A stretch of DNA of 64,000 nt. It comes from Escherichia coli. GTDB taxonomy: Bacteria; Pseudomonadota; Gammaproteobacteria; Enterobacterales; Enterobacteriaceae. The stretch is taken from assembly GCF_003018255.1 (NCBI RefSeq), contig NZ_CP027440.1. The stretch is one strand, 5' to 3'. Position numbers and translations under genes: made by a program. The notes beneath the pieces were generated by a model. That model searched no databases. It was not told the origin of the DNA and saw only the letters and a program-made list of their open reading frames with translations. This document shows positions 23,310 through 24,991 of this stretch, piece after piece (position 1 is the stretch's first letter; each line of letters begins with the position of its first letter).

Positions 23310-23410
23310 AAGCATTCGTCGTCAAAGGGAGGAATATTCATGATATGCTACCACTTTGGGCCCTGGTGGACCAGAAAAGGGCTTGTCTCTTCTCATCAGG
23401 GTAGCTATAG

Positions 23411-23806
<396 letters not shown>

Positions 23807-23847
23807 CACTTTTCGGTTTACTGTGGTAGAGTAACCGTGAAGACAAA

Positions 23848-24033
23848 ATTTCTCTGAGATGTTCGCAAGCGGGCCAGTCCCCTGAGCCGATATTTCATAC
23901 CACAAGAATGTGGCGCTCCGCGGTTGGTGAGCATGCTCGGTCCGTCCGAGAAGCCTTAAAACTGCGACGACACATTCACCTTGAACCAAGGGTTCAAGGG
24001 TTACAGCCTGCGGCGGCATCTCGGAGATTCCCT
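23848..24033 (+). ncRNA. ssrS: 6S RNA, RNA polymerase sigma-70 holoenzyme regulator
   Basis: Sequence ATTTCTCTGAGATGTTCGCAAGCGGGCCAGTCCCCTGAGCCGATATTTCATACCACAAGAATGTGGCGCTCCGCGG... matches E. coli 6S RNA as I recall it; lies between zapA and ygfA. Confidence 0.9.
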
Positions 24034-24105
24034 TCTTATCTGGCACCAGCCATGACGCAACTACCAGAACTCCCACTGACATTATCCCGACAAGAAATCC
24101 GCAAA

Positions 24106-24654
24106 ATGATTCGGCAACGTCGTCGTGCGTTAACGCCGGAACAACAGCAGGAAATGGGTCAACAAGCCGCTACCCGGATGATGACTTATCCCCCGGTGGT
24201 GATGGCACATACGGTCGCTGTATTCCTCTCTTTTGATGGCGAACTCGACACCCTGCCACTCATAGAACAACTCTGGCGCGCCGGTAAGCGCGTATATCTT
24301 CCAGTTTTGCATCCCTTCAGTGCCGGTAATTTGCTGTTCCTGAATTACCATCCGCAAAGCGAACTGGTGATGAACAGGTTGAAGATCCATGAGCCCAAAC
24401 TGGATGTGCGTGACGTGCTACCCCTTTCCCGATTAGACGTGTTGATCACACCGCTGGTCGCCTTTGATGAGTACGGTCAGCGCCTGGGAATGGGCGGTGG
24501 TTTTTATGATCGGACCTTACAAAACTGGCAGCACTATAAAATGCAACCGGTGGGTTATGCGCATGATTGTCAGTTGGTGGAAAAACTCCCCGTTGAAGAG
24601 TGGGATATCCCTCTTCCTGCGGTGGTTACACCGTCGAAAGTCTGGGAGTGGTGA
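24106..24654 (+). CDS. ygfA: 5-formyltetrahydrofolate cyclo-ligase (182 aa)
   Basis: ORF 23908-24654 trimmed to the ATG at 24106 (MIRQRRRALTPEQQQ...), downstream of the 6S RNA 3' end. Confidence 0.8.
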   Translation: MIRQRRRALTPEQQQEMGQQAATRMMTYPPVVMAHTVAVFLSFDGELDTLPLIEQLWRAGKRVYLPVLHPFSAGNLLFLNYHPQSELVMNRLKIHEPKLDVRDVLPLSRLDVLITPLVAFDEYGQRLGMGGGFYDRTLQNWQHYKMQPVGYAHDCQLVEKLPVEEWDIPLPAVVTPSKVWEW

Positions 24655-24711
24655 GGGCGACACACCTGCATCGCCCTGATTGACATCGTTGATTCTTTAA
24701 CCTAATTTAGT

Positions 24712-24856
24712 GAGTAAGGGTAAGGGAGGATGACTCCTCCCCTGAGACTGACTGTTAATAAGCTGGGAAACTTATGAGTAACAGTACAATCAGTATGATG
24801 ACAAGTCGCATCATAACCCTTCTCCTTCAAGCCCTCGCTTCGGTGAGGGCTTTACC
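24712..24856 (+). ncRNA. sibC: SibC-type antisense sRNA (type I antitoxin); boundaries approximate
   Basis: + strand region fully antisense to ibsC, ending in the hairpin GCCCTC-gcttcggt-GAGGGC followed by TTT; K-12 has sibC/ibsC between ygfA and serA. Confidence 0.5.
24755..24814 (-). CDS. ibsC: Type I toxin IbsC, 19-aa hydrophobic peptide
   Basis: Minus-strand ORF read from sequence: ATGATGCGACTTGTCATCATACTGATTGTACTGTTACTCATAAGTTTCCCAGCTTATTAA = MMRLVIILIVLLLISFPAY; GGAGAAGGG SD upstream. Confidence 0.7.
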   Translation of the reverse strand: MMRLVIILIVLLLISFPAY

Positions 24857-24991
24857 GTTACAGCCCCATGCTGCCCTGCCATCGTAAATCCCCATTAAAT
24901 AAACACAACGCATTGATCTGACTTTGATTTATTTTCTGGAGCAGACTCGCAAAGTAGAATGCGCAATGCGGCAACGGTGTGGAGAAGGGAT

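Follow-up and report, generated by a model that had tools for sequence, protein, structure and literature searches.

Three in-frame ATG codons compete as the start of the protein-coding gene that follows the 6S RNA gene of Escherichia coli, and the sources differ on which one is used. In the stretch of DNA analysed here (the window, 64,000 nucleotides of contig NZ_CP027440.1 from assembly GCF_003018255.1), the mechanical open reading frame runs from an ATG at 23908 to 24654 on the plus strand, encodes 248 amino acids without interruption, and overlaps the 6S RNA gene by 124 nt. The PGAP annotation starts fau (ygfA) at 24052, for a product of 200 amino acids, while the K-12 RefSeq protein NP_417387.3 (NC_000913.3) and the Swiss-Prot entry 5FCL_ECOLI start it at 24106, for a product of 182; on NC_000913.3, these two ATGs correspond to 3056187 and 3056241. 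Where, then, does translation of fau begin, and how does that start stand in relation to the RNA gene just upstream? The locus is E. coli ssrS-fau itself, already known, and nothing is added here on 6S RNA.

The ssrS gene and its neighbourhood

Two RefSeq E. coli chromosomes match the region from 23400 to 24900 at 100% identity, and 5,425 of the 5,426 complete genomes of this species carry it at 95% identity or better. The RefSeq gene order is pepP (minus strand), ygfB (minus), zapA (plus), ssrS (plus), fau (plus), ibsC (minus) and serA (minus), to which the K-12 record adds sibC (plus), overlapping ibsC. The 5' neighbour of ssrS, at 23477-23806 on the plus strand, encodes the cell division protein ZapA (PF05164, 8.7e-21; RefSeq annotation) and holds the distal ssrS promoter region. 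This is the gamma-proteobacterial neighbourhood, with zapA upstream and ygfA/fau downstream of 6S and all three on one strand, a linkage described previously (PMC7641849, PMC4064990). Among the 48 loci that we fetched, a zapA homolog lies 5' of 6S in 45, and 6S lies directly 5' of fau in 46. An Rfam scan of the whole 64-kb window returned two matches above gathering score, one to 6S RNA and one to SIB RNA.

The SIB match belongs to a type I toxin-antitoxin pair located between fau and serA: the SibC antitoxin RNA occupies 24680-24830 on the plus strand (RF00113, 136.5 bits), opposite ibsC at 24755-24814 on the minus strand, which encodes a 19-residue toxin, MMRLVIILIVLLLISFPAY. SIB matches were found 3' of fau in four of thirteen loci scanned, from E. 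albertii, Citrobacter, Pseudocitrobacter and Klebsiella.

An earlier note on this DNA, made from the sequence alone, had read a 6S RNA gene here and had named a scan with the Rfam model as the test of that reading. The RF00013 covariance model matches 23848-24031 on the plus strand over its full length (positions 1-187 of 187) with 139.8 bits, against a gathering score of 46.4, and an E-value of 2.2e-28, and both PGAP and K-12 RefSeq annotate the gene, so the reading holds. Alignment to K-12 ssrS, a second check the note had proposed, gave 100% identity. The boundary at 23848 was likewise correct, but the 3' end had been placed at 24033, two or three nucleotides too far, since PGAP ends the gene at 24031 (184 nt) and K-12 RefSeq at 24030 (183 nt). 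In an alignment of 25 enterobacterial sequences, strong conservation stops at column 184, which corresponds to 24031 in the window. Full-length model coverage, identity to K-12, predicted fold and covariation together place the 184-nt gene at 23848-24031.

The predicted fold of this RNA, at -80.5 kcal/mol, has a z-score of -5.62 against dinucleotide shuffles, none of 200 shuffled sequences being as stable. Both the minimum free energy fold and the centroid fold form a long irregular hairpin whose closing and terminal stems flank an unpaired central region. Among 25 distinct enterobacterial 6S sequences, 61 consensus pairs were identified; in five, every one of them within the terminal stem, both bases have changed in a compensatory way, and most pairs are invariant because the set is low in divergence.

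RNAs of the 6S family mimic an open promoter and sequester sigma70-RNA polymerase. U44, the pRNA initiation site, is at position 23891. For the K-12 RNA, both binding to the sigma70-RNA polymerase holoenzyme and a template role in pRNA synthesis are established (PMC3299989), and because the RNA encoded in the window is 100% identical to it, we infer the same activities here. Compared with K-12 ssrS (b2911, RF00013), the locus has the same 184-nt sequence and the same flanks, zapA on one side and fau, then sibC/ibsC and serA, on the other; there is no difference of substance, the annotated 3' ends (183 nt in K-12 RefSeq, 184 nt in PGAP and Rfam) lying 1 nt apart.

Two promoter-like sites lie upstream of ssrS on the plus strand. 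The promoter scan found the first at 23803-23832, ATGACA-18-TAGAGT with a TG-extended -10 element, matching nine of twelve consensus positions. The proximal ssrS promoter, P1, reportedly starts transcription about 9 nt before mature 6S, and we take this site to lie where P1 is expected. The second, TTGCAA-17-TAGAGT at 23588-23616 inside zapA, was read from the sequence; it matches eight of twelve consensus positions, which falls under the reporting threshold of the scan. It presumably marks the expected place of the distal promoter P2, whose start is said to lie about 224 nt before mature 6S. The -10 hexamer TAGAGT (23611-23616 and 23827-23832) is common to both. The scan returned no promoter belonging to fau itself between 23850 and 24100.

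The fau product and its N-terminal motif

PGAP annotation, profile matches, a conserved ATG and coding periodicity together place fau at 24052-24654 on the plus strand, with a product of 200 amino acids. By family, this product is a 5-formyltetrahydrofolate cyclo-ligase, predicted to perform the ATP-dependent conversion of 5-formyl-THF to 5,10-methenyl-THF, and a role for Fau in removing 5-formyl-THF has genetic support (PMC3223725). It is the same gene as fau/ygfA, the folate-salvage gene of E. coli (NF007661, TIGR02727, PF01812; 5FCL_ECOLI), the start codon differing by source. The earlier note's linkage of 6S to ygfA in a common transcript is borne out by these three models together with published co-transcription of the two genes (PMC2848244, PMC7641849), and its placement of the ygfA coding region downstream of the 6S gene agrees with both PGAP and K-12 RefSeq.

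The profile matches bear on the length of the protein. PF01812 scores 160.6 bits (cut-off 27; 5.4e-47), with its first position at 24088. TIGR02727 scores 177.9 bits (cut-off 84.9) over profile positions 1-182, beginning at residue 13 of the 200-residue form; against the 182-residue form, the first profile position to be matched is 8, and the score is lower by 8 bits. The enterobacterial model NF007661, of 198 positions, scores 444.4 bits (cut-off 343), and the 200-residue form covers positions 2-198. The 182-residue form still exceeds both NCBIfam cut-offs. The longer form begins (M)TQLPELPLTLSR..., the shorter MIRQRRR..., and both are widespread in public databases as exact proteins. A 200-residue protein of the E. 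coli cluster that is labelled Staphylococcus aureus (WP_113608265.1), encoded on a 10.8-kb contig, probably reflects assembly contamination. A terminator-like match on the plus strand at 24481, inside fau, was no better than shuffled sequences yield by chance and was discarded.

Structurally solved homologs, namely the human enzyme (3hxt), those of Bacillus anthracis (2jcb) and Aquifex (1sou), and YqgN of B. subtilis (1ydm), align from residues 12-14 of the 200-residue query with E-values from 7e-23 to 7e-16, and are alignable over nearly the whole length starting from a K/R-x3-R motif. Arg13 and Arg17 of the query are aligned with Lys10 and Arg14 in human MTHFS and with Lys3 and Arg7 in the enzyme from Aquifex. 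The residues of this motif are said to bind ATP, both in structural work on human MTHFS and in its UniProt entry; our literature search for MTHFS ATP-binding residues found no specific statement. Enterobacterial Fau differs in having about eleven extra, poorly conserved residues (MTQLPELPLTL) before the motif, which in the Bacillus and Aquifex enzymes begins at residue 2-3. A complete N-terminus, from profile position 1 onward and with the motif included, is obtained only when translation starts at 24052.

The start codon of fau

We compared the candidate starts on the DNA of 48 loci, one genome per species, independently of gene calls. The genera covered are Escherichia, Citrobacter, Pseudocitrobacter, Enterobacter, Lelliottia, Klebsiella, Raoultella, Kluyvera, Trabulsiella, Yokenella and Superficieibacter, plus one Colwellia; 43 loci form the set outside Escherichia, 42 of them from Enterobacteriaceae. 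An in-frame ATG occurs at the equivalent of 24052 in all 47 Enterobacteriaceae loci, including 42 of 42 outside Escherichia. It is always followed by a Thr codon, and it sits 16 codons 5' of the equivalent of 24106, or 18 in Escherichia and in Superficieibacter electus. The codon equivalent to 24106 is ATG in only six of the 43 loci outside Escherichia (three Pseudocitrobacter and three Citrobacter) and is not a start codon in the other 37, where CTG, TTA, CAG, CAC, CTT, CTA, CTC, CAT, ATA, TTC, ACC, TAC, ATT and GAA are found instead. Over the 41 of these loci that align without gaps, the residue encoded there is Leu in 22, Met in six, His in five, Gln in three, Ile in two, and Phe, Thr and Tyr in one each.

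The codons between the two ATGs behave as coding sequence. In the same 41 gap-free loci, nucleotide entropies at the first, second and third codon positions are 0.71, 0.43 and 1.29 for codons 2-16 of the extension, as against 0.55, 0.56 and 1.44 for the core of the protein; the 18 nt preceding the ATG give 1.41, 1.16 and 1.51, with no periodicity. The equivalents of Met1, Thr2, Arg13, Gln14 and Arg17 are invariant, and all except Met1 are encoded by two to five different codons (four for Thr2); the two arginines are invariant in all 48 loci. Residues that stay constant at the N-terminus while their codons vary indicate purifying selection on the protein.

One genome separates the extension from the RNA gene. 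In S. electus, zapA-ssrS has been replaced, no 6S RNA is detected within 2 kb of fau even at E <= 1, and fau keeps the N-terminus of the 200-residue form, its ATG overlapping the upstream stop codon. Because the extension is retained there in the absence of zapA-ssrS, its coding role does not depend on a neighbouring 6S gene. The replacement, at positions 249-1929 of that locus, exchanged the ygfB-zapA-ssrS segment for a DDE_3 transposase fragment and a gene for a 325-residue SMI1/KNR4 (SUKH) family protein, with serA still 3'. In Colwellia demingiae, no 6S RNA was found within 2 kb upstream of fau (positions 1-2000 of the locus) at a permissive threshold, and linkage of ssrS to fau in that genome is either absent or undetected. 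The only match there was a sub-threshold one to the L20 leader (1795-1923, 27 bits, E 0.05).

With high confidence, we therefore regard the ATG at 24052 as the functional start of fau. The earlier note had made the ATG at 24106 the real start, as do K-12 RefSeq and Swiss-Prot. That choice is not supported by the comparison: the ATG exists in frame, but it gives way to other codons at 37 of 43 loci outside Escherichia, whereas the upstream ATG is present in 42 of 42, is followed by a coding-like extension from whose residues 12-14 profiles and homologs begin to align, and is the start called by PGAP. The codon at 24106-24108 is thus most likely that of an internal methionine, Met19. Our search of the literature found no experimental mapping of the fau start or N-terminus by Ribo-RET, Onc112 or N-terminomics. 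Taken together with the evidence on ssrS, the interval very probably forms one transcription unit with two functions, ssrS-fau of E. coli, with the fau start at 24052 included.

Other readings of the start codons fare less well. Escherichia might use both ATGs, making the 200-residue enzyme along with a 182-residue form that lacks the arginine motif and might be inactive or regulatory. Both codons are in frame in all seven Escherichia loci and in the three Pseudocitrobacter and three Citrobacter loci, and 10.1101/520783 documents internal in-frame starts genome-wide in E. coli. Methionine, however, is one of eight residues tolerated at this position, which suggests neutral variation, and no Shine-Dalgarno sequence precedes 24106; we consider dual use unlikely.

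Less likely again is translation from 24106 alone, with 24032-24105 as an untranslated leader. This would accord with the annotation of NC_000913.3 and 5FCL_ECOLI, with an ATG at 24106 throughout the Escherichia loci, and with the passing of both NCBIfam cut-offs by the 182-residue form. It would also require that the codon chosen as start be one for Leu, His, Gln, Ile, Phe, Thr or Tyr in 35 of 41 aligned loci outside Escherichia, that a leader have the periodicity of coding sequence and residues held constant through purely synonymous change, and that the protein lose TIGR02727 positions 1-7, PF01812 positions 1-6 and the R13-x3-R17 motif kept by every solved homolog. Nor does 24106 have a better Shine-Dalgarno sequence than 24052.

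That the longest frame, 23908-24654, encodes a real 248-residue protein whose 5' part overlaps 6S is next to impossible, despite the uninterrupted frame and one automated 248-residue gene call in a public assembly (P0003, Logan) identical to it, since its residues 1-48 match no protein family, its frame is not kept across genera, and the DNA of its 5' part shows the conservation of a structured RNA, compensatory changes included, and not that of codons. The Pfam match begins only at residue 61 of this frame, so that nothing at the protein level supports at least its first 48 residues. From genus to genus, the frame 5' of the 24052-equivalent ATG shifts among all three possibilities, and Klebsiella and Raoultella have in-frame stops. 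In the other genera, 15-24 nt separate 6S from the ATG, in lengths not confined to multiples of three. We accordingly treat 23908-24051, inside and just past 6S on the plus strand, as an artefactual, non-coding 5' extension; the earlier note had been right both that this reading frame exists and that its overlap with 6S is spurious.

Four Klebsiella and Raoultella loci carry 99-125 nt between 6S and the fau ATG, with in-frame stops, and this insert has no Rfam match in any of the four. On the minus strand, a 108-residue reading frame at 23756-24082 spans the whole 6S gene; it was set aside as purely mechanical, the DNA being that of a conserved structured RNA.

Ribosome and Rho at the 6S-fau junction

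The ATG at 24052 lies 20 nt past the 3' end of 6S and has no Shine-Dalgarno sequence. The spacer is pyrimidine-rich, and neither GGAG nor AGGA occurs in it in any genus. A GGAG at 24022-24025 was considered for this role and rejected, being 26 nt from the ATG and paired in the closing stem of 6S.

The spacer (24032-24051) and the first 18-19 codons of fau together make up a C-rich, G-poor, weakly structured tract on the plus strand, 24032-24110. Between 24020 and 24110, each 40 nt contain 13-16 C as against 4-8 G, with parity afterwards, and the predicted centroid fold of the tract is mostly unpaired. Rho termination reportedly falls about 90 nt past 6S. The composition of 24032-24110 is that expected of a rut site, putative here; such sites are C-rich, G-poor, unstructured stretches of some 70-80 nt in the nascent RNA. 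Rho-dependent termination inside ygfA is published (PMC3299989, which cites Chae et al. 2011), and a C-rich, G-poor, unstructured tract fits it.

These elements can be arranged into a working scheme for the unit. Transcription would start at the proximal promoter-like site, which ends at 23832, and at the distal one inside zapA, and the transcript would fold into the 184-nt 6S RNA (23848-24031). Transcription would run on into fau, where translation most likely begins at ATG 24052 to give the 200-residue cyclo-ligase, including the conserved N-terminal Arg13-x3-Arg17 motif, whose codons lie upstream of ATG 24106. Most ssrS transcripts would, as published, be ended by Rho inside ygfA and then trimmed to the mature 6S 3' end, and those that read through would express fau. 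Weak loading of ribosomes at 24052 may leave the tract open to Rho and so set the amount of Fau. Put in its strongest form, the scheme has the ribosome at 24052 and Rho competing for the same stretch of about 80 nt, the outcome deciding between 6S only and 6S plus Fau, while Escherichia may in addition make a 182-residue form without the motif from 24106. We offer this as a tentative proposal, one that we would sooner expect to fail than to hold. If it is true, placing the start at 24106, as the K-12 reference does, masks an overlap between the start of fau and a rut-like tract.

The only point that goes beyond the textbook account concerns the reference records. Fau/YgfA in the K-12 reference and in Swiss-Prot is probably short by 18 N-terminal residues, the two invariant arginines among them, whereas PGAP and NF007661 already have the longer form. 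Constructs, knock-outs and reporter fusions designed on the 182-residue coordinates could, as a result of the short record, impair the enzyme or misplace its start. With the start moved to 24052, the translation of fau also stands in a different relation to the published site of Rho termination and to the region of 6S 3' processing.
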